64,000 nt of DNA from NCBI GenBank assembly GCA_964436545.1, contig CAYTCJ010000001.1, positions 78,392 through 142,391 of the forward strand. Direction: 5' to 3'. Below are positions 10,285-59,682 of this stretch, in pieces. The position numbers were made by a program, and so were the translations under genes. Positions within the stretch are counted from its first letter, which is position 1. Every line of letters starts with the position of its first letter. Under the pieces are notes generated by a model. The model did no database searches. It saw only the letters and a program-made list of their open reading frames with translations, and had not been told where the DNA came from. The DNA comes from an uncultured Candidatus Saccharibacteria bacterium (lineage in GTDB: Bacteria > Patescibacteriota > Doudnabacteria > UBA920).

Positions 10285-11988
10285 ATGCAGAAAAAGTGGA
10301 AAGTCAAGCCGAAAGTTCCCAGTGAATTAGCATCAAGATATGAAAATTTTGATCCGTTTTTAGCGCAACTGTTATATAATCGGGGACTTACTGAGTCGGA
10401 TCAAATTACAGAATTCTTAAACACCGAATACGAAAGGCTACATAGCCCTTTTTTATTTAAGGATATGAAAAAAGCGGTTAAGCGAATTTGGCAAGCCATT
10501 GAGCAACAGGAAAAAATTTGTATTTACGGCGATTACGATGCCGATGCCATTACGGCCAGTGTGGTTTTACTCCAGACTTTTCGTTATTTGGGGGTGGAAG
10601 CAGGTTACTACATCCCAGACAGGTTTAGCGAAGGTTATGGGATTAATTTGCAAGCTTTGGAAAGTCTTAAAAATCAAGGGGTTAAATTGATTATTACGGT
10701 TGATTGCGGAACTAATGCCCGAGAGGCAGGCGAATGGTGTAAAGAGCATAATATTGATTTGATAATTTCCGACCACCACGAAATTATTGGCGAAATGCCT
10801 AAGGCTTTTGCGCTCATTAATCCTAAAAATCCACAAGAGATGTATCCGGACCGAGAAATTACCGGAGTGGGGGTGGCGTTTAAGGTGGCGTGTGGAATAT
10901 TAAAAAATCAAAAATCAAAAATCAAAAATCAAAATTTTATGGAAGGTTGGGAAAAGTGGCTTTTAGATTTAGTGGCCATTGGCACAGTTGCCGATTGTCA
11001 TAAGCTGTTAGGGGAGAATCGAATTTTGGTGAAGTTTGGTTTAAAGGTATTGGCTAAAACCAAATGGCTCGGGCTTCAAGCGCTTATAGCTTCTGCCGGC
11101 TTGGATTTTAACCGGCAGTTACCCGATACTTATACTTTAGGCTTTGTGCTTGCTCCTCGGCTGAATGCCACGGGTCGGTTAGAGCATGCCGGTTTGGCAG
11201 TAGATTTGTTAATGTGTAGCGATGCCATTAAAGCCCAGCAGTCGGCTATGGCCATTGAACAACTGAATCTCAAGCGCCAAGAAACCACGGCATTAATTTT
11301 GAGCGAGGCCCGAGAGCAGGCTTTGCAAATTCAAAATCGACCGGTGTTGGCCATTATGAATGCGCAGTGGCATAAGGGCGTCGTGGGGTTGGTGGCCGGA
11401 AAATTGGCAGAGGAATTTTACAAACCCACTTTTATTTTGGCACAAGAGGGAGCCGAGGCAACCGGCTCGGCTCGCACAGTGGGTAATTTTAATGTAGTGG
11501 ATGCTTTAACTTATTCCGCTAAACATTTAATTCGTTTTGGGGGGCACAAGCAAGCTGCGGGTTTAAGTTTGGATCCCAATAAGTTTGAAAATTTTTATAT
11601 CAGTCTGCTCGAGTTTGCCAACCAAAATCTAACCGAGGATGATTTATCACCCATATTGGAACTGGAAGCAGAGCTAAATGCTTCTGACCTACAACTTACA
11701 ACTTACAACTTACTCGCAAGCCTAGAGCCTTTTGGAGTGGGCAACTTTAAACCTAAGTTTCTAATTAAATCAGCGGAAATCATTTCGCAAAAACCCGTGG
11801 GTGCCAACCAGCAACATTTACAAATGCAAATTCAAATCGGCAGTAAGGTGATTCCGGCTATTGCGTTTAATTTTTCTCCGGTTAAAATTCCCGGTTTGGT
11901 AGATATAGCTTGTGAGTTGCTATTAGATGAGTGGCAAGGTAGAAAAAATTTAAAACTCAGAGTTATAGATATTATTGGAGTGAGTTAA
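10285..11988 (+). CDS. recJ: Single-stranded-DNA-specific exonuclease RecJ (contains two in-frame short tandem repeats)
   Basis: DHH motifs (YGDYDADAITAS, ISDHHE) and the DHHA1 region; repeat-encoded KNQKSKIKNQN and LQLTTYNLL segments. Confidence 0.85.
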   Translation: MQKKWKVKPKVPSELASRYENFDPFLAQLLYNRGLTESDQITEFLNTEYERLHSPFLFKDMKKAVKRIWQAIEQQEKICIYGDYDADAITASVVLLQTFRYLGVEAGYYIPDRFSEGYGINLQALESLKNQGVKLIITVDCGTNAREAGEWCKEHNIDLIISDHHEIIGEMPKAFALINPKNPQEMYPDREITGVGVAFKVACGILKNQKSKIKNQNFMEGWEKWLLDLVAIGTVADCHKLLGENRILVKFGLKVLAKTKWLGLQALIASAGLDFNRQLPDTYTLGFVLAPRLNATGRLEHAGLAVDLLMCSDAIKAQQSAMAIEQLNLKRQETTALILSEAREQALQIQNRPVLAIMNAQWHKGVVGLVAGKLAEEFYKPTFILAQEGAEATGSARTVGNFNVVDALTYSAKHLIRFGGHKQAAGLSLDPNKFENFYISLLEFANQNLTEDDLSPILELEAELNASDLQLTTYNLLASLEPFGVGNFKPKFLIKSAEIISQKPVGANQQHLQMQIQIGSKVIPAIAFNFSPVKIPGLVDIACELLLDEWQGRKNLKLRVIDIIGVS

Positions 11989-12156
11989 CATTTTATCATT
12001 TTATCATTCTAACATTCTAACATTTTAACATTTTAACATTCTAACATTTTAACATTCTAACATTTTAACATTCTAACATCTTATCATCTTAACATCTTAA
12101 CATTCTAACATGGGTTGTTTTTTGATAGATGATAAAATATTATTATGTTAGAATGA
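11988..12156. repeat. Tandem 8-bp repeat array (CATTYTAA, about 15 units) followed by a short inverted copy
   Basis: cattttaacattctaa... units between recJ and rnhA; 3' segment gatgataaaat...ttagaatg is the reverse complement of the units. Confidence 0.8.
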
Positions 12157-12163
12157 ACTTATT

Positions 12164-12655
12164 ATGAAACTCATTATTTATACCGATGGGGGAGCGCGGG
12201 GTAACCCGGGTCCGGCGGGGATTGGGGTAGTAATCACCAACGAAGCCGGAGAAATTCTTGGTAAACATCAACAATACATTGGTAAAGCTACCAACAATGT
12301 GGCGGAGTATAAGGCGCTCATCCTTGCGCTTCAGAAAGTGCAGGAAATTCTAGATATCAAATATCAAATATCAAATCAGATTCATCTCCCCCCTCCCTTA
12401 CCCTCCCCACAACAAGGGGGAGGGAATTTGAATCTGGAAATTAGAATGGATAGTGAGTTGATTGTTCGGCAGATGCAGGGGAGGTATAAAATCAAAGACC
12501 CCACACTTCAGGTTTTGGCGGGTCAGGTATTAACTTTAATTAAAAATTTTCATCTCGTGAATTTTACGCACATCCCCAGAGCGCAAAATCAGGAGGCTGA
12601 TACTTTAGTTAACTCAGCGATCGATGCTTATTTAGCGCAGGCTAATGAAGTTTAA
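12164..12655 (+). CDS. rnhA: Ribonuclease HI with about 24-aa repeat/hairpin-encoded insertion
   Basis: IYTDGGARGNPGPAGIGVVI, NNVAEYKALILAL and MDSELIVRQM motifs; insertion ILDIKYQISNQIHLPPPLPSPQQGGGNLNLE lies between conserved blocks. Confidence 0.85.
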   Translation: MKLIIYTDGGARGNPGPAGIGVVITNEAGEILGKHQQYIGKATNNVAEYKALILALQKVQEILDIKYQISNQIHLPPPLPSPQQGGGNLNLEIRMDSELIVRQMQGRYKIKDPTLQVLAGQVLTLIKNFHLVNFTHIPRAQNQEADTLVNSAIDAYLAQANEV

Positions 12656-17300: not shown

Positions 17301-18680
17301 TTGTTATCAGTTATGACTCCCATTATCTTACATTTAGATATGAATAGTTATTTTGCCTCGGTGCTTCAGCAAGACAACCGGGCTTATAGAGGCAAGGTTT
17401 TAGGTGTGTGTGAGCATTTGGGCGGAATTATTATTTCTGCCAGCAAAGAAGCAAAAAAATGGGGTATAAAAACCGGCACGCCGGTGTGGGAAGCCAAAAA
17501 ACTTTATCCCAAAATTATTTTAACTCATACTACAGCGGAAAGGTTTAGGTTTTATACTCGTCGGTTAATTAAATTGGTTTCCGACTATACCGATCAGGTG
17601 GAAGTCTATAGCATAGATGAAGTGTTTCTTGATATTACGCGGACGTGTAATATCAGCCAATCAGCTTATCAGCATACAAGCTTGTCAGCTGGAGGGGGAG
17701 TTAATCCGTTTGCGGAAGCGGTAAATATGGCTTTGGAAATTAAACACCGCATGAAGCAGGAGGTGGGGGATTATTTAACTTGCAGTATTGGCATTGCGGA
17801 AAATAAAGTTTTAGCGAAAATCGGTTCAGATTTTAAAAAGCCGGATGGCATAGTAGTGATACAAAATTCTAAATCCGAAATTCTAAATCCGAAACAAATT
17901 TTAAATTCTAAATCCCAAATCTTAAATTTGCAAAAAGAAGATTTGTATCATTGCTTAAAGCTCACAGATGTGCCGGGAATTGGGGAGAGACAAGCAAAAA
18001 ATTTACATGCTCTAGGCATTAAAACTTTAGTGGATTTAAAACATTATCCCCAAAGTCATTTAATGGCTCGTTTTGGTAGAATTACCGGACATCATTTGCA
18101 TAATTTAGGCCAATTAAATGCTTCGTGGAAAACTTTGGTTCATCAACAACAAGAAATTAAATCAATCGGTCATATGTACACTTTGCCTAAAGAGTATCGA
18201 AAGCCGGAATTTTTTGAACCCGTGTTATTTAAACTGTGCGAGATGGTGGCTAGGAGGCTGAGGCGGAAAAATTTAGAAGGGAATGTAATCCATGCTTTTT
18301 GTTATTTTGAAGACCATCAAAATTGCGGTAATAGTTTGAAGGTGGGGGATTATATAAGTGATGGGCGGGAAATTTTTAGGTATGCCTCGGATATTTTAAA
18401 AATTTTAAATTCCCCCGCCTTCGGCACCCCCTCTTTGGCCACAGAGGGGGGAGGGGGAGTTAGGAAATTTAGCATGATTGGTATTACCATATCTAATTTA
18501 AGACCAGCCACAGGGCAATTAAGTTTATTTGGGCATAAAGAAGAGAATACAGGGTTATTAAAAGCTTTAGATAAGATTAATAACAAATATGGCGAATTCA
18601 CCGTAGCTCGTGCGCCAATTTTAGCTACCGGCAAAGTTTTTCGCGACAGTGTGGGTTTTGGCAGAGTTAAAGAGCTCTAG
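17301..18680 (+). CDS. dinB: DNA polymerase IV (Y-family) with in-frame repeat and hairpin insertions
   Basis: ILHLDMNSYFASV, SIDEVFLDIT and the PGIGERQAKNLHALGIKTLVDL HhH motif; inserts NSKSEILNPKQILNSKSQILNLQ and NSPAFGTPSLATEGGGGVRKF. Confidence 0.85.
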   Translation: MLSVMTPIILHLDMNSYFASVLQQDNRAYRGKVLGVCEHLGGIIISASKEAKKWGIKTGTPVWEAKKLYPKIILTHTTAERFRFYTRRLIKLVSDYTDQVEVYSIDEVFLDITRTCNISQSAYQHTSLSAGGGVNPFAEAVNMALEIKHRMKQEVGDYLTCSIGIAENKVLAKIGSDFKKPDGIVVIQNSKSEILNPKQILNSKSQILNLQKEDLYHCLKLTDVPGIGERQAKNLHALGIKTLVDLKHYPQSHLMARFGRITGHHLHNLGQLNASWKTLVHQQQEIKSIGHMYTLPKEYRKPEFFEPVLFKLCEMVARRLRRKNLEGNVIHAFCYFEDHQNCGNSLKVGDYISDGREIFRYASDILKILNSPAFGTPSLATEGGGGVRKFSMIGITISNLRPATGQLSLFGHKEENTGLLKALDKINNKYGEFTVARAPILATGKVFRDSVGFGRVKEL

Positions 18681-18998: not shown

Positions 18999-19203
18999 TA
19001 GTAGGATTTTCGCTTTTGCAAAATACTCCCTCTGTTATTCCGAGCGAGTCTTCGCCAGCTGGCGGACGAGCCGAGGAATCCCTTATATATTCAAGACTTA
19101 AGGGATCCCTCCCATCTCCGCCAAGGCTACGGTGGGCAGGCCACTCATCTAAATTTACTAAGATAGGCTTGCCCGACGAAGCTTTGAGCGTAGTCGGGTT
19201 GGG

Positions 19204-35044: not shown

Positions 35045-35560
35045 ATGAATGTCCTAAGGTATGTTAATATGACTTATTTATTTTCCATTACCGCGGGTAT
35101 GTGCATAAGTTATTTGGCTTTGCATTGGGTGTTTGCGACTTTTTTTAAAAGTCGTCTGGTACCCTCTACCCAAAGTCCTTTTTCTCTAATTTCTTTAGGG
35201 ATAATTGTGCTACTTAGTTTGGCAAGTTATGCGCTGGCTGGCTGGGTTTCTAACCCGGAATTAAGCAACCGTTTATTGCATATGCTAGGCGGGGGCTTTT
35301 TAGCTATGGCAACTTGTTTTTTGGTGGTGCGCGACAGCCGGTTTATTGTTAGCCGAACCCAATTTTTACTACTGAGTTTTTTGGTAGTTATGGCTCTGGG
35401 GGTGGGGAATGAAATAGTGGAATTTGTTCTGCAAAATTATTTTTATTGGAAGTTTGCGCAAACCGTAAACGATACTTGGTTAGATTTAGTAAGTAATCTG
35501 CTGGGTGCTTTGGCCGGCGGGGTAGTGTTTACACCTTGGGTAAAAAAACAGCTACATTAA
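35045..35560 (+). CDS. Hypothetical multi-TM membrane protein
   Basis: 171 aa with about five TM helices. Confidence 0.4.
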   Translation: MNVLRYVNMTYLFSITAGMCISYLALHWVFATFFKSRLVPSTQSPFSLISLGIIVLLSLASYALAGWVSNPELSNRLLHMLGGGFLAMATCFLVVRDSRFIVSRTQFLLLSFLVVMALGVGNEIVEFVLQNYFYWKFAQTVNDTWLDLVSNLLGALAGGVVFTPWVKKQLH

Positions 35561-35885: not shown

Positions 35886-35945
35886 TACCCTCCTTCCTTT
35901 GTGGTCTTATTCGCGCGAATAAGACCACAAAGGGGGAGGTTTTAA
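35886..35945. repeat. Long perfect palindrome, C-rich/G-rich flanked (terminator-like; related to the hairpin-element family)
   Basis: CCTTTGTGGTCTTATTCGCG / CGCGAATAAGACCACAAAGG 20-bp arms flanked by CCCTCC...GGGGGAGG. Confidence 0.6.
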
Positions 35946-36041: not shown

Positions 36042-36665
36042 ATGAGCCTATTTTTCCCCAAACAGCCGGAATTTTTTAAGAATTTGCATGAGTTAAACCA
36101 TCATTTACAGGCCATAGTAAAACTTTTTTCTCGGTTTGCTCAAGAGTTTAACAATTTTAGTGAATTTTCCAAACGAGCTTCGGAAATTGAACATTTGGGC
36201 GACGAAAAAACCCACGAAATTATTACCCAACTAAACACCAGCTTTATGACTCCCATAGACCGGGAGGATATTTATTTGTTAGCTCACCAGTTAGATGACA
36301 TTATAGATTTAGTGGAAAACATAATTCATAACGTGCAACTTTACGGGGTGGAGAAGAAATTTTTTGGCTTGGAAGCTTTTGCTCCGCTTATGCTTCAGGC
36401 TGGGGAAGAAATGGGTAAAATGCTAACGGTTATGGAAAAATTAAAGCACACGTCCGAATTAGTAGAAGTAAAAATTAGAATTCATAATTTGGAAGACGAG
36501 GCGGACAAAATTTTTACCGAGGCGATTAGTAAATTATTTAATTCGGAAACCAACCCCATTACGGTAATTAAAATTAAAGACTTACTGGAAAATTTGGAAC
36601 AAGTGTTAGATAAGTTTCAGAATGTTTGCAACATTATTGAAGGGATTGTGGTTAAAGCAGGGTAG
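36042..36665 (+). CDS. DUF47 / PhoU-like phosphate transport regulator homolog
   Basis: 207 aa helical protein adjacent to pit (as B. subtilis ykaA sits beside pit); helical-repeat pattern. Confidence 0.55.
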   Translation: MSLFFPKQPEFFKNLHELNHHLQAIVKLFSRFAQEFNNFSEFSKRASEIEHLGDEKTHEIITQLNTSFMTPIDREDIYLLAHQLDDIIDLVENIIHNVQLYGVEKKFFGLEAFAPLMLQAGEEMGKMLTVMEKLKHTSELVEVKIRIHNLEDEADKIFTEAISKLFNSETNPITVIKIKDLLENLEQVLDKFQNVCNIIEGIVVKAG

Positions 36666-42423: not shown

Positions 42424-42795
42424 ACTTCAAAAAAGTGAAGTTATTACCAAAAGTTTAAGGGTTGTTTAAATTTAGCCTTGGGTTTTTGGTATCTAAACTT
42501 TGCTTTTTAGAATTTTAACAATAGAATTCACAGGACTGCATGTTTTAGCTAGGGCAAAGCCCTAAGCTTTAAAACATGCATTTAGCCAATTACTTCGTTA
42601 TTTTGCTACGCTTTTTGTCGCCGTATGATGCATACGTCTCCAAAAATTCTCGCAAAATGTCTTGTTCTTGACTAAACCTGTAAATTCTAAATTAATTTTT
42701 TATATTTTTAATATAGCAAATTTTTCGGAAAAAAAGGTGTGGACAAAGGGGGTGGTAAGTTGTAAGTTGGTAAGCGAGTAAGTAAATAAGCAGGT

Positions 42796-42840
42796 AAGAA
42801 AATAAGAAAAGCGCGCCGGTGGATGGTACCGGCGCGCGGG
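42796..42840 (-). terminator. Intrinsic terminator on the minus strand (GC hairpin plus U-run)
   Basis: Minus strand reads GCGCGCCGGUACCAUCCACCGGCGCGC followed by UUUUCUUAUUUUCUU. Confidence 0.6.
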
Positions 42841-42849
42841 AAAGCTTGA

Positions 42850-43047
42850 TCACTTGCGCGGAAAGCACTCGTGATCGGCTCGCCCCGCCCACTCAACGGT
42901 GGGCGACGGTTGTTTCGGGGGTTCCGCCGGCGGTCGCACCGGCGGGCGGGGGTGCTCAAGTGAGCAACCCCCTGAAGTGGTGGGGGTGGGCAGGGCGTCG
43001 GCCGCATGGCGGTCGACCTCCGGCCCGTGAGGATCCCATTCTTGCAT
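42850..43047 (-). CDS. GC-rich small ORF (65 aa, Pro-rich) with consensus RBS; an alternative reading is a structured RNA
   Basis: AAAGGAGGATACC-ATG RBS, ORF spans a sharply GC-rich segment, and an intrinsic terminator follows immediately. Confidence 0.35.
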   Translation of the reverse strand: MQEWDPHGPEVDRHAADALPTPTTSGGCSLEHPRPPVRPPAEPPKQPSPTVEWAGRADHECFPRK

Positions 43048-43286
43048 GGTATCCTCCTTTCAAGGAGGAGTTTAAAGGAAAGCTGGGAAAATTGTCAAAT
43101 CTTAATGATAGTTTAAAGAAATAATGTTTTGCAATTTATTATATAGAAAATGGATTCCAGATCCATCCACCAGATGGCGGACGGGATGACAAGACAGAAT
43201 TTATCAGACCAATATGACCAATACGTCTGATGGCGTAGTTTGTGTGTTATAATATTCAATATCCAAATAATTAAACTAGACCACCA

Positions 43287-45027: not shown

Positions 45028-45402
45028 TGAACAATTAATTAAAGTTTCAGATATAGCATCGCAAGTTGGGACAGTGGCTTTTAGTTCTGCGATTTTGCCC
45101 TCGGTTTCTGATTTAAAAGGAGTTTGGATGCTTTTTAGTCTTACTTTTGCCTTTGCTTTATGGTATTGGAGTATAATTATAATAAAAATAACAAAGGAAA
45201 TTTAAAATTATGAAAATAGAATTATTTTATGTGGTTTTAGGAATTGCAGTGTTGGCGATCATTTTGGTTGCCTTGCCGACTTTGCTTGACAAGCGGAAAA
45301 AATAAGCGTAAGCTGGAATTAAGATGAATAAGAAATTAGCCCAAACTGTAGTTATGATGATGCCTTTTGCTACTCGCAAAGGCTAGTTTAGATATTATTT
45401 CT

Positions 45403-45440
45403 AAACCCCGCCCTTTGCAAAGGGCGGGGTTTGTTTTTTA
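45403..45440 (+). terminator. Intrinsic terminator
   Basis: CCCCGCCCTTTGCAAAGGGCGGGG perfect hairpin followed by TTTGTTTTTT. Confidence 0.75.
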
Positions 45441-45772
45441 TCCCCTCTGAGGGGAATCATACACAGTAGCGGGTGAGTAAGACGAATATTCACACTTTGT
45501 CATTCCGGAATTCTGCTCTTTGTCCCAAAGGGCGGAATATCCGGAATCCAGTTATCATAGAAACTAAATTTTGGATTCCGTCTTAGGTGTACTTGCCCAG
45601 GATGATACCAGAGTTATAAAAAGGGTAATTAAACTTTATGAAAATATTTTATTACATAAATCAAAACATGATGATGCGAACCCGCTTGTGGAAGTGGCTA
45701 AATTGCGCGTGAGTTTTCTCCTTCGCAGTTTTGCCACCTTCACCAGGTAGGCAAAATTTTAGGGAGGAAAAA

Positions 45773-46857: not shown

Positions 46858-48378
46858 TTATCCCAAACTGTGCCTTAACACAGCTTGTTTTTCTATGAGT
46901 TTAGTTAATGATTTTTGAGTAAAAATTTGTTTATGGAGCTGGGCGGATAACTGTTGGTGGGCTTTGGCTTGTGGGGTTTGGGCGCTAAATTCGGTGAGTA
47001 AATAACTTTCTAAAGCCTGAACATCTTGCCAAACCTGTTTTAAACCCGGGAATTTTTTACTTAAAGCCAAAAGCCCCGGTTTGTACAGGAATTGACCGGC
47101 GAATAATAAATCTGTTTTTAAATTCAGATAAGTTTTTTCTAAAAGTTGAATTGTGCCATTATCTATGGCGGTTTTTATGCCTCTGCCGGTGCCAATTAAT
47201 TCCGGAGGCAAGCCTAAAGCATATAAACTGCCGGTAAAGCTAATGGCTCTGGGCAAGCGCACTTTGCCTGTGCCTCGACTATAACCAAACAAGCCAATAT
47301 GTTGAACTCTTTCCCGTCTTTTGGGAAAATGTAAAGCCACTTGATTAATGAGAGGAGCCAGGCTTTCTACGGTGGGTTGGTAAACAGCTTCAAAGGTTTG
47401 AGTAAGTTGGATTAAAGTTTGTTCTTCGGTTGGGCTTAGGGTTTTGGCTGAGTGTTTGGGGAAAGTTTCGTTAAAGTAAGTAAGCGCTTTTTTAACTTGC
47501 GCTTTGGGAAAATCGTAACGAAAAGCACTTTGGATGGTGGTGGTTTTTACGCCTCGGTATTCGGCACAAAAAGCTTCCGGTGAATTGGGGTTAAGTCCGC
47601 CTCGAAAGGGTAAAGTGCCGGCGCCAATAATTGGGTAGAGGGGCAAACGATGTTTTTTACTAAAGTGCAAATAGCGGGAAAAGGCAAGTTTTATGGCCAA
47701 AACTGTGGGGACCAAACCGGAGTTTAATGCCGGGTCGGAACGCGCCACAAAAGGCCTTAAATATTTGGGTCGGCTTTTAAATTTGTGTTCATAAAGCGCC
47801 AAATATTTTTCTAAAATTTTATGAGAATGAATAATGCTGTTAACGGTTTCAAACAAAGGAATGACTTCTAAAAACATTTCGCAATTTTCTTCCATGCGGT
47901 TAAGCGGGTGTCTTAAGCAAGCAATTTCTTTAAAAGCTTCTTGAATGGCAATTAACTCCTCGGCGGTTTCGGTCATGGGTAAAATTACTTCAAACAAAGG
48001 GGGGGCGTGAAGTTGGGTTTGGCGAGCTAGGCCGGTTGCCGTGAGTATGCCCATTAGCGCCCGAGACATTCGGAATTCGTGCTGAACTTTGGGGTTGGGC
48101 AAACGGAAAGTTAAAAATTTATTTTTGCCTAATTGATGAGTTTTAAAATAATCGTAATGATCGGCTAACATTCTTTCTACTACCGATTCATCGACTAATT
48201 TACCTTCCCAGTCCCACATGTATTCATCGGTATTTAAGTCTTTAAAACAGGTAAAGCTTTCTTGGGTTTCGTGGACAGCCGGAATAAACGCACTGTTTTT
48301 TTGCCAAAAAGGCACCGAGGCGTGGTCGGGGTGCTGAGTGGCCATACAGCTGGGGATTTTGCGGGGGGATTTTTTCAT
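46858..48378 (-). CDS. ppcA: Phosphoenolpyruvate carboxylase, archaeal type (PepcA family)
   Basis: N-terminal MATQHPD signature of archaeal-type PEPC; about 500 aa length; internal similarity blocks. Confidence 0.7.
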   Translation of the reverse strand: MKKSPRKIPSCMATQHPDHASVPFWQKNSAFIPAVHETQESFTCFKDLNTDEYMWDWEGKLVDESVVERMLADHYDYFKTHQLGKNKFLTFRLPNPKVQHEFRMSRALMGILTATGLARQTQLHAPPLFEVILPMTETAEELIAIQEAFKEIACLRHPLNRMEENCEMFLEVIPLFETVNSIIHSHKILEKYLALYEHKFKSRPKYLRPFVARSDPALNSGLVPTVLAIKLAFSRYLHFSKKHRLPLYPIIGAGTLPFRGGLNPNSPEAFCAEYRGVKTTTIQSAFRYDFPKAQVKKALTYFNETFPKHSAKTLSPTEEQTLIQLTQTFEAVYQPTVESLAPLINQVALHFPKRRERVQHIGLFGYSRGTGKVRLPRAISFTGSLYALGLPPELIGTGRGIKTAIDNGTIQLLEKTYLNLKTDLLFAGQFLYKPGLLALSKKFPGLKQVWQDVQALESYLLTEFSAQTPQAKAHQQLSAQLHKQIFTQKSLTKLIEKQAVLRHSLG

Positions 48379-48630
48379 ACTCTTTCATTTTTTCACAATC
48401 TTTTGTTAATGTCAAAAATTTGGTATTATATGAAAAGGTTATAGGGGTTAGGTTTTAGTTGTCCATTTTTACCATAAGCTCGCAGAGCTAAGTTTATAAT
48501 TCTTTTAGCTTTGCTTGGTCTAATTCTTATAACACTTACCGGTGGGCTTGGCGGGGCAATGGTGTATGGTCCCAATGCCGACCCTTTCTTTAAACCAGTT
48601 TTTGAGTTGTTGATGCGGTAAAAGTTTTTT

Positions 48631-48663
48631 AACCCCTCCTGGAACAGGAGGGGGAGGGGGTGG
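48631..48663 (+). repeat. Hairpin element (forward copy) directly upstream of the DUF559 gene
   Basis: CCCCTCCTGGAACAGGAGGGGGAGGGGGTGG; ends 4 nt before the ATG and supplies GGAGG as RBS. Confidence 0.7.
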
Positions 48664-48667
48664 TAGA

Positions 48668-49018
48668 ATGAATTATCTTTATAACAATATTAAATTAAAA
48701 TTAGTTAGAAAGCACTTACGAAATAATTCCGGTTTGCCTGAGATTATTCTTTGGGAGCAATTAAGAGCAAGCAAGTTGGGAAAAAAATTTAGAAGACAAT
48801 ATGGTGTAGGTAAGTTTGTTCTCGATTTTTATTCTCCCCAAATTCGGTTGGGTATTGAATTAGACGGAGCTACGCATGATAACATAAAAAGTTTTGAGAA
48901 AGATATAATTAGGCAGAAATTTATTGAAAGCCAAAATATAAAAGTAATTAGATTCCAAAATAAAGATGTTTTAGAGAATTTAGAAGGGGTAATTAATGAA
49001 ATAAAAAAATATTTGTGA
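48668..49018 (+). CDS. DUF559 endonuclease-domain protein (Vsr-like fold)
   Basis: LPEIILWEQLRASKLG..FRRQYGVGKFVLDFYSPQIRLGIELDGATHD...KVIRFQNKDVLENLEGVINEI matches DUF559. Confidence 0.75.
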   Translation: MNYLYNNIKLKLVRKHLRNNSGLPEIILWEQLRASKLGKKFRRQYGVGKFVLDFYSPQIRLGIELDGATHDNIKSFEKDIIRQKFIESQNIKVIRFQNKDVLENLEGVINEIKKYL

Positions 49019-49020
49019 TA

Positions 49021-49060
49021 CCACCCCTTAGTCCCCTCCTATTTTAGGAGGGGAAAAAAG
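49021..49060 (-). repeat. Hairpin element (inverted copy) directly downstream of the DUF559 gene
   Basis: Reverse complement reads CCCCTCCTAAAATAGGAGGGGACTAAGGGGTGG, matching the upstream copy. Confidence 0.65.
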
Positions 49061-49065
49061 TATTT

Positions 49066-49139
49066 GCGGGATTCGTACAGTGGCAGTATGCGACCTTCCC
49101 AAGGTTGAGACGAGGGTTCGATTCCCTTATCCCGCTCCA
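49066..49139 (+). tRNA. tRNA-Gly (anticodon CCC)
   Basis: Manual fold: acceptor GCGGGAU/AUCCCGC, anticodon stem CGACC/GGUUG, loop UUCCCAA, T-loop TTCGATT, encoded CCA. Confidence 0.85.
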
Positions 49140-51051: not shown

Positions 51052-51897
51052 ATGGAAAAAAGAATTGGTTTACCAAAGGATCGGATTAGGGAGTTAAGGT
51101 CAAGCTTGCATCATTATGAACAAGTACAAGCAGGAAAAGTAAGGGAATCTCATGGTATTGATACCCGAACCAATGCTAAGAGTGTAGTAGACTTTTCAGA
51201 TAGGAGTTCCTGGAATAGGTTTGATGAAAATCAAACTGAAATTTCTAAAGATTTTAAAGGAGTTTTAGGGGAAAGTTTAGATATTAACGAATTTTTATTT
51301 TTTAGATTTCCTGGTAGGGAAGATTTGGTTTTGATTGAGGTGGGTGGACCCGGGTATGGTTTAAGGGCTAGTATGCCACAGGTGGCAAGGTCTTATGCTA
51401 TTTGTTTGGAGGATAAAGATATTTACAATTATAGTAGTAAAATTTTAGATCCAACATCGCACACAGTAGTTTCCAGAGTAAGTGTAAATAATCAACAAGT
51501 GCCAGCAGATTTAACACAACCGGAAACTTTTAGAGAATTAAGTAGAGTAATGTCAGGTACCAAGGCAGATGTGTTAATTGAACGAATGTATCGGGGTTGG
51601 AAATACATTTATCAAAAGCCAGAAGTATTATTCCATATATTAAATAAATATTATAAGTTAATGTCTGATAATTCAGTAATGTTTATTCAATTAATATACA
51701 AACATCCAACTGATATGGAAAAATTTAGTGAGTTTATTAATCAAGTAAATTTAAAATTTTTAGGTAAATTAAAAATTAAATTTATAAAACTTTCTGGAAT
51801 GAATTATCACTATACACTTTTAATAGAAAAATTTCCTGGTTGTCCTAAGGAGTTGACCTCGCTCAGACAAAATAAAACTTACCAGCATGAACATTAG
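51052..51897 (+). CDS. Hypothetical protein (possible Rossmann-like fold)
   Basis: LIEVGGPGYGL glycine-rich segment; no confident family. Confidence 0.35.
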   Translation: MEKRIGLPKDRIRELRSSLHHYEQVQAGKVRESHGIDTRTNAKSVVDFSDRSSWNRFDENQTEISKDFKGVLGESLDINEFLFFRFPGREDLVLIEVGGPGYGLRASMPQVARSYAICLEDKDIYNYSSKILDPTSHTVVSRVSVNNQQVPADLTQPETFRELSRVMSGTKADVLIERMYRGWKYIYQKPEVLFHILNKYYKLMSDNSVMFIQLIYKHPTDMEKFSEFINQVNLKFLGKLKIKFIKLSGMNYHYTLLIEKFPGCPKELTSLRQNKTYQHEH

Positions 51898-54841: not shown

Positions 54842-54988
54842 TGCGATGCACATATATGTATTGAATTATGAATCAAGAATTATGAATTATGAGGTAAGAG
54901 TAAAGAATTATGAAGTATGTCCCGCAGAGCGGGATCCCTGCCTTGTCGGCAGACAGGCGTCTTTGGTGGAAATTATAAAGTAAGAACA

Positions 54989-55879
54989 ATGATTAGAATT
55001 TTAATTAAAGTCTTATTGTTGGTAATTGTTTGTTTGCCATTTTCAGCCAAAGCCTTAGATATTCAAGATTTTGCACAAGGCGCCATGAATAACGGTTTAA
55101 CGGCGGAAAGTTATTTGGTAATTGATAGTACGAACGGAAAAGTATTAATGCAAAAAGATATCCAAAAAACTTGGACTCCGGCTTCGCTTACCAAATTAAT
55201 TACGGCTTTGGTGGTATTGGATAAAAATCCAAAATTACAAGGCAATGTCACGATTAAAAAAGCCGATGAAGTAGGTGGGGCTAGAATTGCCACCAAACCC
55301 GGTGTAAGTTATAAAGTAAAGGATTTGTTTTTTGCTATGCTGGTGGCTTCGGCTAATAATGCGACCAATGCTTTAGCCAGAAGTACGGGGCTAAGTTCAG
55401 AGGAGTTTGTTGCTAAAATGAACGAAAAGGCTAAAGTTTTAGGTGCTATTAATACTGTATTTGTGGAGCCCACAGGTATTAGTGAAAAAAACGTCAGCAC
55501 AGTTGAAGATTATGCCAAAATTGCTCAAAAAGCTTTTGCGAGCCAAACTATTTTATTAGCGGGAAAAACCGCGGAATATAATTTTAGGGCCATTAATAAT
55601 AAACGATATTTGCATAAATTAAAAAATACTAATAAACTCTTAAAAGATGGGGAAATGGAAATCATTGCGGGTAAAACCGGTTACCTAGATGAGTCAAAAT
55701 ATAATTTTACCGCTTTAGTAAAGGACCAGTTTAATCAATCGGCCATTATTGTTTTGTTTGGAGCCAAGGATCCAAGCGCACAATTTAGAGAAACCAAACA
55801 ACTTACGTTTTTAAGCGGGTTGGTTAAACAATTAAATTTTTTGGGTGGGGCGGTGTTAGGCGTTGATGATGTTAAGTAA
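54989..55879 (+). CDS. D-alanyl-D-alanine carboxypeptidase (S11, PBP5/6-like); the ORF extends upstream to 54917 through a GC-rich hairpin region
   Basis: SLTK (SxxK), SAN (SxN) and KTG motifs; signal peptide beginning MIRILIKVLLLVIV. Confidence 0.75.
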   Translation: MIRILIKVLLLVIVCLPFSAKALDIQDFAQGAMNNGLTAESYLVIDSTNGKVLMQKDIQKTWTPASLTKLITALVVLDKNPKLQGNVTIKKADEVGGARIATKPGVSYKVKDLFFAMLVASANNATNALARSTGLSSEEFVAKMNEKAKVLGAINTVFVEPTGISEKNVSTVEDYAKIAQKAFASQTILLAGKTAEYNFRAINNKRYLHKLKNTNKLLKDGEMEIIAGKTGYLDESKYNFTALVKDQFNQSAIIVLFGAKDPSAQFRETKQLTFLSGLVKQLNFLGGAVLGVDDVK

Positions 55880-56724: not shown

Positions 56725-56938
56725 GCGAATCAGCAGTCAATAATCAAATCAGTAAGTAAGTTGGTAAGTTGTAAGTGAGTAAGTAGAGAAGTTGGTAAAA
56801 ATAAATTTAGGGCGACGTGGATGTAGAGTCCAAAATGCCTTAGGTCTGCGGTAGGGACGTGCTCAAGTGAGCAGGTATTATTATTGTCAAATAAAGTTTA
56901 AAAAATTAATAAAATTATTTTAGAAAGGAATCAAATAT

Positions 56939-57133
56939 ATGACCCCCCATTTAACCCCGCCTAAAACATTGCAAGGGCCAGATCATCATTATAAAGATGA
57001 TCCAAGAAATCCAGAACGTAGGAGGGTAAGGGGAGGGGTGGAAAAAATGCACGGAGGTGATTTAGATTTAGAGGATAAGCGGTTAGATGATTTAAAAAAA
57101 GAATTAGATGAACACAGAGGGAAACCAAAATAA
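56939..57133 (+). CDS. Hypothetical small highly charged protein
   Basis: RBS AGAAAGGAA upstream; no recognisable family. Confidence 0.25.
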   Translation: MTPHLTPPKTLQGPDHHYKDDPRNPERRRVRGGVEKMHGGDLDLEDKRLDDLKKELDEHRGKPK

Positions 57134-57305
57134 TAATTTTAAATTTATGTCATCAAAAATATCCAAAGCTGAGTTTTCTAGGACAATTAGAGAAAGAAGA
57201 ACAAGGGAAGGTGACGGAAGACAAAATCTTGATAATGACGATCAGGATGCAGAAGGAAAATATGTTGAAGATGGAGAACAACCAGAAGAAGAAACAGAAG
57301 AATAA
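57108..57305 (+). CDS. Hypothetical small acidic protein
   Basis: 65-aa ORF with an acidic, low-complexity C-terminus. Confidence 0.2.
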   Translation: MNTEGNQNNNFKFMSSKISKAEFSRTIRERRTREGDGRQNLDNDDQDAEGKYVEDGEQPEEETEE

Positions 57306-57339: not shown

Positions 57340-58698
57340 TTGAGAGGTTTTGGTCTATGGGTTATAATGGGTGGTATGAAACAGAACTCCCCCAGACCCC
57401 TTCTTTCGAAAAGAGGGAAGAGAGAGCTCCCTAAGGGAGAGAGAAAAAAGGTGCTGATTGCATTAAGCGGTGGAATTGACAGCGCGGTTTCGGCATATCT
57501 ACTTATCAAACAGGGCTTTGAGGTGGAAGGTGCGTTTATGAAGAATTGGACGAGCCAAGAGGGATTACTTAAAAACGAATGTCCGTGGCTTTCGGACAGG
57601 CGAGATGCCTTAAGGGTGGCCGGATTTTTAGGCATTAAACTGCATACGTTGGATTTTGAAAAGCAATACCAAAATACGGTAATGAAGTATTTTTTTTCCG
57701 AATACAAAGCCGGCCGAACCCCCAATCCGGATGTAATGTGCAATAAGGAAATTAAGTTTAAATTGTTATATAATTGGGCTCGCCATCACGGATTTGATTA
57801 TTTAGCTACGGGACATTATGCCCAAGTAGTAAGTAGTAAGTTAGTAAGTAATAAGTATGAAAAACAAAAAACTTACAACTCTACAACTTACAACTTACAA
57901 CTTTTTCGGAGTAAAGATGAATTCAAAGATCAAACTTACTTTATCTATAACATCAAAAGCGAACAATTGCCACATTTATTATTCCCAATTGGGGGGATGA
58001 AAAAAACCGCTGTGCGTGAGTTGGCGCGAAAAATAAAATTGCCCAATGCGGAAAGAAAAGAAAGTATGGGCCTCTGTTTTGTGGGTAAAATTCGGCTGAA
58101 AGATTTTTTACAACAAAAAATAAAAGCGAAGAAAGGGGAGATAGTGTTGGCTTCGGGTTTGTCATCTCGGCCTTTGAGCCGGGATCTAGAATTAAAGAAC
58201 TGGATTCCGGATAGCCTTTCGGGTGCACTCAAGGCTTCTGGAATGACAGAATTGGTTATTGGACAGCATTTTGGGCTTCATAACTACACTATTGGCCAAA
58301 GACAGGGGATACAAGTGGGCGGTAAAGGCGGGCCGTATTATGTTTTAAGTAAAGATTTAAAGCATAACCGACTTTATGTAACCAATGATCCCAATGACAA
58401 AAGGTTGTTAGTCAAAGAAGTGCAAATTCATAGTGTGAATTGGATAACTCCCCCTAACCCCCTCTTTGGAAAAGAGGGGGGAGGGAGAATTTCCCCTCTT
58501 AAAATAAGAGGGGATAAAGGGGTGATATTACTTGGTAGATATCGTCATCAGGGGGAGCTGGTGCCACTTACAGTATCTCAAATAAACCAAGATTTATATA
58601 AAATAATTTTTAAAACTCCACAAAAAGCTGTTGCCAGTGGGCAAAGTTTGGTATTATATAAAGGTAAGGAATGTGTGGGAGGGGGAGTAATTGGGTAA
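57340..58698 (+). CDS. mnmA: tRNA-specific 2-thiouridylase MnmA with three in-frame repeat/hairpin insertions
   Basis: PP-loop LIALSGGIDSAV, catalytic CNKEIKF and GLCFVG; insertions at 57387-57445, 57826-57903 and 58448-58524. Confidence 0.85.
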   Translation: MRGFGLWVIMGGMKQNSPRPLLSKRGKRELPKGERKKVLIALSGGIDSAVSAYLLIKQGFEVEGAFMKNWTSQEGLLKNECPWLSDRRDALRVAGFLGIKLHTLDFEKQYQNTVMKYFFSEYKAGRTPNPDVMCNKEIKFKLLYNWARHHGFDYLATGHYAQVVSSKLVSNKYEKQKTYNSTTYNLQLFRSKDEFKDQTYFIYNIKSEQLPHLLFPIGGMKKTAVRELARKIKLPNAERKESMGLCFVGKIRLKDFLQQKIKAKKGEIVLASGLSSRPLSRDLELKNWIPDSLSGALKASGMTELVIGQHFGLHNYTIGQRQGIQVGGKGGPYYVLSKDLKHNRLYVTNDPNDKRLLVKEVQIHSVNWITPPNPLFGKEGGGRISPLKIRGDKGVILLGRYRHQGELVPLTVSQINQDLYKIIFKTPQKAVASGQSLVLYKGKECVGGGVIG

Positions 58699-59037: not shown

Positions 59038-59682
59038 ATGGCAGAAGATGATTTTTTAAAAAATTTGGAAATGCAAATGGCTGGAGTGACAGGAGGCGAT
59101 GGTTTAACTGATGAAGAAAGAAGAATATATAACACAGTTACGCAAGCTCTACAGTCAGGAACAGGAGATAATTTAACCCGAGAGCAGATTACAACCTTTA
59201 AGAAAGCTCGACAAGTTTTGGAAGAAACACACAGAAAAGCAAATAATCCGGAAAATATTACAGTAAATATTCGCCCCGGAGTGCCTTTAAAAGTAAAGCG
59301 TTCAAATGGACAAATAGACGAAGGTTGGACTTTGGCCTATAATCAGAGGTATTTAAATGAAGGGAGGGTTGTTATTGAAAAAGATAAACAAGATGGAAAA
59401 GGTGGACAGCTTCAAAAAGAAATTCCAATTAAAGATTTAGCAGAGGTGAATGATTTAGCTAGAATAATGAGTGAACCAGAAAATGTAATGGAGTGGGGAG
59501 GGTTTGGGGTATTAGATAGAATAAAAATAAAACAAACCGGTGAGATACGACTTATTCATCAATTTGCAAAAAGAGATGGTGAGGTGAAGGCAAAAGTAGC
59601 AATGAGTGGAGATAGTCATAAAAATTTTAAATTTGAATATTATAGTTTTGAGCAAATAGAAAGAGTACCGCTTAGGTATTAA
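59038..59682 (+). CDS. Hypothetical protein (AT-rich)
   Basis: 214-aa ORF with no recognisable family. Confidence 0.35.
   Translation: MAEDDFLKNLEMQMAGVTGGDGLTDEERRIYNTVTQALQSGTGDNLTREQITTFKKARQVLEETHRKANNPENITVNIRPGVPLKVKRSNGQIDEGWTLAYNQRYLNEGRVVIEKDKQDGKGGQLQKEIPIKDLAEVNDLARIMSEPENVMEWGGFGVLDRIKIKQTGEIRLIHQFAKRDGEVKAKVAMSGDSHKNFKFEYYSFEQIERVPLRY

Follow-up and report, generated by a model that had tools for sequence, protein, structure and literature searches.

A 64,000-nucleotide stretch of DNA (here called the window; contig CAYTCJ010000001.1 of assembly GCA_964436545.1, positions 78,392 to 142,391) from an uncultured Candidatus Saccharibacteria bacterium carries an mnmA gene, for the tRNA-modification enzyme tRNA 2-thiouridine(34) synthase, that contains four short imperfect palindromes assignable by sequence comparison to three dispersed families. 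The host genome is Doudnabacteria-like (Patescibacteria/Candidate Phyla Radiation [CPR]). [quoted passage not shown] An initial annotation had described three isolated oddities in this gene; they belong to a phenomenon that extends across the clade, has insertion hot spots, and is linked to a DUF559 unit located in the same window.

Hairpin elements within the window mnmA

The features of the gene are as follows.

57376 to 58698, plus strand: mnmA coding sequence, 440 aa from ATG 57376 or 415 aa from the alternative start GTG 57451
57340 to 57368, plus strand: predicted sigma-70-like promoter, TTGAGA-17-TATAAT, with 11 of 12 consensus matches and a -10 box conserved in the orthologous locus L167
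57383 to 57447, plus strand: element i, a degenerate copy of a G-rich family; after it come a small CTCCC/GGGAG hairpin and, before GTG 57451, a Shine-Dalgarno-like run (GGGAGAGAG)
57823 to 57906, plus strand: element ii, an AT-rich hairpin of GTAAGT(A/T) 7-nt/15-nt repeats and their complement, adding 20 aa
58150 to 58256, plus strand: element iv, about 105 nt with TGTCAT...ATGACA terminal inverted repeats, adding 31 aa (peptide LSSRPLSRDLELKNWIPDSLSGALKASGMT)
58444 to 58530, plus strand: element iii, a G-rich double hairpin (iii-a, 58446 to 58487; iii-b, 58491 to 58530), adding 18 aa

The open reading frame (ORF) that spans these features (57340 to 58698, plus strand) is a genuine and intact mnmA that is probably functional. 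The 440-aa product, to which the database protein P0001 is 100% identical, has the three-domain layout of MnmA (PP-loop ATPase HUP domain, central PRC-barrel, and C-terminal beta-barrel) and matches the Pfam domains PF03054 (E = 6.8e-72), PF20259 (E = 1.2e-17), and PF20258 (E = 9.3e-15). The structure of Escherichia coli MnmA (PDB 2DER) aligns to it with an E value of 5.7e-73, pairing the PP-loop SGGIDS with SGGVDS of E. coli and residues C122 (NPDVMCNKE) and C234 (GLCF) with the catalytic cysteines C102 and C199. The PP-loop and both cysteines are unchanged in 118 orthologs. With these residues and all three Pfam domains kept, the view of the initial annotation that an essential tRNA-modification gene can tolerate several repeat insertions was upheld.

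The three in-frame repeat blocks described initially are all present and translate as had been written, and a fourth, the approximately 105-nt element iv, had been overlooked. It was exposed by the alignment to MnmA structures that the annotation had proposed as a check, in which residues ~260 to 293 (LSSRPLSRDLELKNWIPDSLSGALKASGMT) have no counterpart in E. coli (2DER). In comparison with shuffled sequence, the folds of the three internal elements are significantly better. The arms of element ii (57824 to 57856 and 57871 to 57903), built of 7-nt/15-nt tandem units, are 76% complementary and give an RNA fold of -22 kcal/mol (z = -4.39), which bears out the GTAAGT/CTTACAA block reported at 57826 to 57903. 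The double hairpin reported at 58448 to 58524 was likewise recovered, as element iii, with a fold of -43.6 kcal/mol (z = -3.41) and an outer pairing, ACTCCCC/GGGGTGA, that resembles the terminal inverted repeat of a MITE. Element iv has a z of -2.62, and two core coding stretches used as fold controls have z values of about 0. Positions 57385 to 57426 of element i form an 83% direct-repeat copy of 58446 to 58487, the start of element iii, and the core motif common to both has three matches in the window where 0.01 are expected. The hairpin of element i is degenerate (z = 0.18), as the initial annotation had stated in placing a degenerate hairpin copy at the N terminus, a placement that is itself less certain since the element may lie in the 5' untranslated region (UTR). 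More intact orthologous copies are found in L167 and L082. A scan of the window against Rfam gave only tRNAs above the gathering threshold, the mnmA hairpins producing nothing except sub-threshold noise (CbSR1 and let-7).

Elements ii, iv, and iii are all in frame and free of stop codons. Two deep-branching orthologs of 358 to 359 aa with empty sites (L010 and L088) have 8 aa at site ii, 7 aa at site iv, and 12 aa at site iii, where the window protein has 28, 38, and 30 aa. The window MnmA is therefore markedly longer than usual, as had been noted, with an excess of about 81 aa over the empty-site orthologs instead of the roughly 90 aa first estimated: 20 aa at site ii, 31 aa at site iv, 18 aa at site iii, and about 12 aa at the N terminus. 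Subtracting all four elements leaves a protein of about 359 aa, the same length as the insert-free orthologs.

An AlphaFold model of the window MnmA built from 118 orthologs (mean predicted local distance difference test [pLDDT] score, 73.9) has a core that matches PDB 2HMA, 2DER, and 2DEU with TM scores of 0.77 to 0.78 (Foldseek). In this model the element ii insert is at the tip of the beta hairpin E149-154/E173-178, that of element iv lies between strands E254-259 and E292-298, and that of element iii lies between strands E345-356 and E385-389. The pLDDT values drop to about 45 to 65 at these three inserts, which look like extended loops connecting paired beta strands; their description as disordered loops agrees with this prediction of low-confidence loops.

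Two readings of element i, as a translated N-terminal extension or as a 5' UTR providing the ribosome-binding site, appear about equally likely. The predicted promoter ends 8 nt 5' of ATG 57376, so that no space is left for a ribosome-binding site at this start, and a transcript from the promoter would begin at about the ATG itself, making element i either a leaderless N terminus or a 5' UTR. GTG 57451 is preceded by the GGGAGAGAG Shine-Dalgarno sequence at proper spacing, and the JGI gene call of the close ortholog P0003 (from L167, with a nearly identical 5' region) begins at the valine that matches this GTG. L167 and L082 both retain ATG 57376 and its frame; the usual TAA of the G-rich family reads AGA or AGC in the N-terminal copies (AGA in the window), and the frame from ATG 57376 therefore stays open.

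Another G-rich run (AGGAGGGTAAGGGGAGGGGTGG) occurs 5' of mnmA at 57015 to 57045, within a segment (56939 to 57305) that holds two small, highly charged ORFs of 64 and 65 aa; a 214-aa ORF lies 3' of the gene at 59038 to 59682. None of the three ORFs has a Pfam match.

Site occupation and recombination among mnmA orthologs

We compared the gene with its 120 closest homologs, which belong to Doudnabacteria or Patescibacteria wherever named. Their MnmA proteins range from 333 to 492 aa in length, and nearly all of this variation occurs at the N terminus and at the three internal sites, of which site ii is extended in 112, site iv in 64, and site iii in 59 of the 120 proteins (a fifth site is extended in 2). 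Peptides at the same site are unrelated between orthologs and resemble translated palindromes (PPLTKGRLGGV, SLRG...LAMT, and GLSAKRIGLS...LALSPARYTL), one and the same element fills two sites within a single ortholog in P0010, P0049, and P0055, and the element families are distributed patchily over a neighbor-joining tree built from the core alone. A single open frame runs through the inserts at all 19 orthologous loci with uninterrupted sequence, which had been located through conserved peptides and not through intact ORFs. This speaks for an obligatory read-through of the inserts and against their removal. Removal by splicing or in the manner of an intein was ruled out as a candidate, as all copies are in frame and stop-free; it is also countered by the reading of the G-rich family in three different frames (mnmA N terminus, mnmA site iii, and dinB). 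Mimicry of a tRNA anticodon arm by the hairpin loops (e.g., CUUUGGA and CUUUCGA), by which MnmA would regulate itself, was dropped because unrelated hairpins with unrelated loops fill identical sites in orthologs.

Independent assemblies show the elements at identical codons, which makes it clear from the sequences compared that the insertions are not an assembly artifact. L081, from an independent JGI assembly (3300045379), has elements ii, iv, and iii in a form 98% identical to that of the window; L082 (NCBI) and L083 (ENA) have the N-terminal element and element iii in common with the window; L165 carries element iii, L084 and L166 carry element ii, and L167 carries the N-terminal element and element iv, always in frame. 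Repeats do break assemblies, and many DUF559 homologs are on very short contigs. Locus L013, which had seemed to be a frame-disrupted mnmA, was rejected as such, its break being a 100-N scaffold gap with duplicated flanks (1100 to 1200) exactly at site iv, a position from which we conclude that assemblers break at the hairpin elements. Given the recurrence across assemblies, we put the chance that the insertions are chimeric assembly errors at close to nil.

The same comparison bears on the age of the elements, for which very recent insertion had been suggested. Most are not very recent, since element iii is shared with L082 and L165, orthologs whose proteins are only 66 to 75% identical to that of the window; element ii is likewise shared with L084 and L166 and the N-terminal element with L082 and L167. 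What remains of the suggestion is that some gains, losses, and replacements are recent. Element ii is polymorphic in length, as had been anticipated, the window copy having 84 nt, that of L084 78 nt, and that of L081 69 nt.

The genes that neighbor mnmA are mostly 84 to 98% identical in protein sequence between the window and L167 (two are at 49% and 75%), and the 12 genes around it have almost no internal indels. The mnmA gene of L167 has hairpins at sites ii and iii unrelated to those of the window, an extra 81-nt G-rich hairpin at site iv, and a 63-nt element at the fifth site; an unrelated hairpin also replaces element ii in L082. L081 combines elements ii and iii of the window type with the 81- and 63-nt elements of L167, and its element ii is shorter than that of the window by exactly one 15-nt unit block. 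All mnmA indels among these close relatives (15, 63, and 81 nt) are multiples of 3 nt. An imperfect direct repeat of 17 nt lies on either side of the 81-nt indel, the extra element of L081; this arrangement fits duplication upon insertion and slippage or deletion equally. In the mnmA-centred loci of relatives, most C/G-rich hairpins are within mnmA itself, and by this sequence survey the gene is a local hot spot for hairpins.

Identity along the gene switches partners from segment to segment. From 58318 to 58443 the window is 94% identical to L081 and 71% identical to L167; from 58534 to 58698 L167 and L081 are 96% identical and the window is 83 to 84% identical to either; and the spacer downstream of mnmA is 98% identical between the window and L167. 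On these segment-wise identities mnmA is a recombination mosaic with breakpoints near the elements.

Within the otherwise syntenic block that is 84 to 98% identical to L167, an archaeal-type phosphoenolpyruvate carboxylase gene (46858 to 48378) is 75% and the gene at 51052 to 51897 is 49% identical to its L167 counterpart. These two genes suggest frequent allelic replacement by recombination in this population.

Dispersed repeat families and the DUF559 unit

The G-rich family, CCCCTCTTT-loop-AAAGAGGGG, to which elements i and iii belong, has six or seven copies in the 64 kb: i, iii-a, and iii-b in mnmA, one in dinB (18408 to 18468), one in rnhA (12400 to 12425), and two intergenic copies (48631 to 48664 and 49018 to 49056). 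The intergenic copies were considered as intrinsic terminators and rejected, being without a downstream T-run on the relevant strand. They form the two ends of the following unit.

48625 to 49062, plus strand: putative small mobile unit, a DUF559 ORF (48668 to 49018) between inverted hairpin repeats (48625 to 48667 and 49019 to 49062)

The ORF encodes a DUF559/Vsr-like protein of 116 aa (PF04480, E = 1.3e-25; closest structure PDB 3hrl, E = 9e-11), and the inverted repeats that surround it are of the same family as elements i and iii of mnmA. Over 39 nt, element iii-b and the right terminal repeat are colinear and 87% identical (E = 2e-8), the TAAAATA loop and the GGGGTG(A/G)TAT tail included. 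Homologs of the DUF559 protein (63 to 72% identity, plus a copy of about 44% in L168) were found in four further genomic contexts, making five in all: between HD and CAP genes, between ribulose-phosphate epimerase and transketolase, between DnaX and a 559-aa protein, and between an aminoacyl-tRNA synthetase and alanine racemase. Many of these homologs sit on very short contigs. Five of six loci share a layout in which CYCCTCC-loop-GGAGGRG, a small GC hairpin, and GRGGTGGTAGA precede the ATG and the stop codon is followed by TCTACCACC and two hairpins; in short, the inverted ends consist of a hairpin, a GC hairpin, and GGTGGTAGA. The window copy has this layout without the small GC hairpin, and the L168 copy is flanked instead by a direct repeat of about 120 nt made of family hairpins. 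The spacer between HD and CAP exists in three states: it is 28 nt long in the window; in L167 it is 190 nt long and includes three family hairpins; and in L168 it contains hairpins together with DUF559. L167 is without DUF559 at both the site filled in the window and that filled in L168. The gene thus varies in position and in presence or absence among close relatives, as a mobile or homing gene does. Because homologs in five contexts share a terminal architecture, the DUF559 unit looks like a small, undescribed mobile unit, and our literature search found no paper describing DUF559 units with hairpin ends or DUF559 as a mobile element.

A tRNA-Gly(CCC) gene beside the unit (49066 to 49139) has the opposite orientation in L167 (1975 to 2055), which has no DUF559 unit; the difference points to a local rearrangement at this place.

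Repeats related to the mnmA elements, together with other short-period blocks, were found in the following places in the window.

18408 to 18468, plus strand: G-rich hairpin in the dinB (DNA polymerase IV) ORF 17301 to 18680, in frame, z = -2.63
17649 to 17951, plus strand: two more in-frame dinB insertions, ISQSAYQHTSLSAGGG (about 17649 to 17711) and a AAATTCTAAATCCG tandem block (17864 to 17920)
12354 to 12425, plus strand: ATATCAA tandem repeat and ACCCTCCCC...GGGGAGGGA hairpin in the RNase H (rnhA) ORF 12164 to 12655
10903 to 11713, plus strand: repeat blocks in the recJ ORF 10285 to 11988, AAAAATC x4.6 (10903 to 10934) and TACAACT x3.4 (11689 to 11713)
45497 to 45590, minus strand: intergenic relative of element iv, TGTCATTCCGGAA ... 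ATCCGGAATCCAGTT, in inverted orientation
56751 to 56805, plus strand: intergenic GTAAGTTG tandem repeat, the unit of mnmA element ii, with another copy at 42752 to 42806

The IMS_C match of dinB is 15 aa longer than the profile, and alignment to PDB 7yll shows the dinB insertions as gaps of 17 to 21 aa (the AAATTCTAAATCCG block was also detected by Tandem Repeats Finder). Peptides of the LISLSAYQHI type, as in dinB, occur at mnmA site iii in other orthologs as well. In rnhA the Pfam RNase_H and RVT_3 matches are split by about 28 aa at the repeat and hairpin. The AAAAATC block of recJ is a 13-aa insertion relative to PDB 8y30, and the TACAACT block, whose heptamer is identical to that of mnmA element ii, aligns to the same structure without a change in length. 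The element ii family is accordingly present at four or more loci in the 64 kb (mnmA, recJ at 11689 to 11713, and the spacers at 42752 to 42806 and 56751 to 56805).

Several other repetitive or structured segments occur in the window. The spacers at 19041 to 19200 and 45351 to 45600 are dense in several families of GC-rich hairpins, including a CGCCAAGGCT...GCCCGACGAAGC type that also makes the 63-nt in-frame insert at the fifth mnmA site in L081 and L167. About 275 nt at 42795 to 43070 have a GC content of 70% in a genome of 38 to 40% GC and fold at -148 kcal/mol; the segment contains no long ORF, has no Rfam match even at E <= 1, and could represent either a structured RNA that has escaped annotation or several GC-rich hairpin repeats clustered together. 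Right after the recJ stop codon, 11985 to 12169 comprises 16 tandem copies of the 8-nt TTAACATT followed by a partial inverted complement (12129 to 12169). A perfect 38-nt palindrome (CCTTTGTGGTCTTATTCGC / GCGAATAAGACCACAAAGG) at 35896 to 35933, in the spacer between ORFs 35045 to 35560 and 36042 to 36665, is the strongest local fold outlier of the window (z = -5.7). Finally, a TGAATTA x8 tandem repeat (54862 to 54970) lies at the annotated start of a peptidase S11 ORF (54917 to 55879), the true start of which is probably downstream of the annotated one, because the L167 ortholog does not have the initial ~17 residues (SRRAGSLPCRQTGVFGG), which resemble translated repeat.

Origin of the elements and comparison with known systems

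In the explanation that we favor as probable, three elements within the coding sequence occupy loops between paired beta strands and would be translated as extra surface loops, and the fourth, at the extreme 5' end, would form an N-terminal extension or a 5' UTR with a ribosome-binding site. The G-rich family (i, iii, and the dinB copy) would derive from the hairpin-bearing terminal inverted repeats of the ~440-bp DUF559/Vsr-like PD-(D/E)xK unit, the mnmA copies being its solo or doublet ends, analogous to MITEs or REPINs. We infer that the DUF559 protein may mobilize the hairpins, that these may be inserted, lost, or replaced by nuclease action plus repair or by recombination, and that the inserted peptides may be neutral passengers. 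Selection would then retain only copies of 3n nt that are stop-free and in structurally permissive loops, and homologous recombination among related strains would shuffle the alleles.

Several observations weigh against so passive a picture. The gene is far more colonised than its neighbors in the surrounding 15 kb, which makes a model of pure tolerance inadequate. Element iii is unlike passive junk in being more conserved than the coding sequence around it: compared with 90 nt on each side (Fisher test), its identity is 91% against 71% in the flanks in one comparison (p = 9e-5) and 89% against 60% in another (p = 9e-7), and in L165 both of its stems are unchanged, all differences being in its loops and spacer. 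The families of elements ii and iv yielded no autonomous partner. A query of joined site iv and site iii peptides gave no scored candidates, and an exhaustive HMMER search with the 38-aa site iv peptide returned one unrelated repeat protein (P0121), leaving undecided whether this family is translated elsewhere. A clean target-site duplication was looked for and none was found, the sole candidate being the 17-nt imperfect direct repeat at the 81-nt indel. The DUF559 protein as mobilizer is a candidate mechanism.

The conservation of element iii would be expected if the hairpins were functional as DNA or RNA and maintained by purifying selection, the peptide being incidental; they might serve as binding sites for a trans-acting protein, as signals for recombination or repair, or as structures that affect mRNA stability or pause translation. 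Between the window and L082, identity is 79.9% in the core (57% at third positions) and 90.8% in element iii (93% at third positions), and in L165 divergence starts exactly at the boundary of the element. Element ii shows a weaker excess over its flanks (p = 0.11 and 0.02), with 86.1% identity (88% at third positions) against 74.6% in the core (50%) between the window and L084, and the recombination breakpoints also lie near the elements. However, unrelated hairpin families replace one another at the same site, so that no single sequence or loop is required; insert-free orthologs exist; and the copy at the N terminus, still intact in L167 and L082, shows decay in the window (z = 0.18). The invariant stems leave no covariation and no Rfam family matches. 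The excess conservation of element iii could reflect selection at the nucleotide level, and it could also come from recent spread or from gene conversion by other genomic copies. We regard a nucleic acid function as unlikely on balance.

Slippage of the replication machinery and template switching (microsatellite growth and hairpin-templated copying) might have produced element ii and the other short-period blocks in place. The tandem units of element ii are of the 7-nt/15-nt kind, the difference between relatives is exactly one 15-nt unit block, and the same heptamer forms one-armed tandem arrays in recJ and two spacers, the recJ array aligning to PDB 8y30 at unchanged length. Yet members of the heptamer family are scattered over four or more places in the 64 kb, L167 and L082 have hairpins of unrelated sequence in place of the whole of element ii, and elements iii and iv are not covered, all of which makes an origin in place seem quite unlikely. 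Adaptation at the protein level, in which extended beta-hairpin arms, basic or disordered, might help in binding tRNA or a partner within a reduced CPR proteome and the hairpin DNA is only raw material, would account for the lengthening of the same three loops in so many orthologs and for inserts rich in Ser, Pro, and Arg with a net charge of +0.10 per residue against +0.06 in the core. It sits poorly with the unrelated sequences that close relatives carry at each site, insert lengths from 0 to ~58 aa, the persistence of insert-free orthologs, the low pLDDT, the intergenic occurrence of the same DNA families, and a conservation that is seen at synonymous positions and not specifically at the amino acid level. 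We hold adaptive loops to be improbable, and selection for disordered loops, which had been suggested initially, found no support, the pattern fitting dispersed selfish hairpins filtered by frame, stop codons, and loop position.

A bolder extension of colonisation by selfish or neutral hairpins is tentative, and we would not yet count on it: the hairpin-bracketed DUF559 genes might constitute an undescribed family of small elements of mobile or homing type in Doudnabacteria/CPR. Gene conversion or repair induced by the nuclease would place copies of their solo or doublet ends in a few permissive loops of essential genes such as mnmA, where the copies would be translated, exchanged as cassettes between strains, and held under a nucleotide constraint above that of the surrounding codons. 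The arrangement recalls REPIN-RAYT systems. A mobilizing gene between inverted hairpin copies is the diagnostic layout of repetitive extragenic palindrome (REP)-RAYT-REP units, and REPs are extragenic by definition. Short, dispersed GC-rich hairpins, sometimes as doublets, and a candidate mobilizing gene flanked by inverted hairpin copies are common to both; here, however, the flanked gene is DUF559 (PD-(D/E)xK fold) and not a Y1 (IS200/IS605-type) transposase, and copies lie inside mnmA, dinB, and rnhA and would be translated. A survey of PD-(D/E)xK proteins placed VSR and DUF559 in one clade with the group I intron homing endonuclease I-Bth0305I (EDxHD) (PMC3424549), a precedent for a nuclease of the Vsr/DUF559 clade as a selfish, mobility-promoting enzyme. 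I-Bth0305I is encoded in a group I intron, whereas the DUF559 genes described here are free-standing between hairpin repeats.

By analogy, the closest known counterpart of the mnmA elements is the RPEs, sequences of about 100 to 150 bp inserted in frame in housekeeping genes (Ogata et al. 2000; reviewed in PMC10969869). Like RPEs, the mnmA elements comprise several short palindromic dispersed families that are in frame and stop-free in unrelated housekeeping genes, form stable hairpins (except element i), are apparently translated at positions predicted to be fold-compatible, occur intergenically too, and are absent from some orthologs. The link is one of analogy alone, with no sequence relationship to RPE families expected, and there are differences: the present elements are ~40 to 105 nt long, the host belongs to CPR/Patescibacteria, a few loops are re-occupied by unrelated families across the clade, one family is tied to a DUF559 unit, and at least one element exceeds the surrounding host gene in conservation. 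MITEs, including intragenic ones such as the QMITEs of Coxiella (PMC5896051), and ERIC and BOX elements (reviewed in PMC10969869) are similar in being small and non-autonomous, with terminal inverted repeats (here TGTCAT...ATGACA in iv and ACTCCCC/GGGGTGA in iii) and in-frame ORF fusions, and the G-rich family looks like the termini of a bigger unit that carries a gene. They differ in that the putative partner here is a Vsr/DUF559-type nuclease in place of a recognized transposase, that the families of elements ii and iv have no identified partner, and that the only candidate for a target-site duplication is an imperfect direct repeat. A more distant parallel is provided by the coding palindromes found within Nematomorpha mitochondrial genes (PMC6649704), inverted repeats in functional genes of which both arms are translated with protein function and a stringent nucleic acid hairpin both preserved; those are long, perfect, and located over conserved protein regions, whereas the present ones are short, imperfect, dispersed insertions in variable loops of a bacterial gene. 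A literature search for intragenic palindromes or MITEs in CPR/Patescibacteria returned nothing relevant. What is new relative to the known systems is the host lineage, the recurrent filling of the same loops from unrelated families, a conservation of element iii in excess of its surroundings, and the association with DUF559.

For genome analysis, the elements inflate and fragment the gene calls of metagenome-assembled genomes through start codon choice and scaffold gaps, yield spurious "novel" peptide segments, and can mislead alignments and phylogenies of CPR marker genes. If our reading is correct, selfish DNA of the Rickettsia type in protein-coding genes would extend to the Candidate Phyla Radiation, and much of the variation in MnmA length within one clade would represent the turnover of hairpins at a handful of loops. 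The tiny DUF559/Vsr-like unit would then be a candidate for the mobilizing activity, which would give a function to a widespread domain that has had none assigned.

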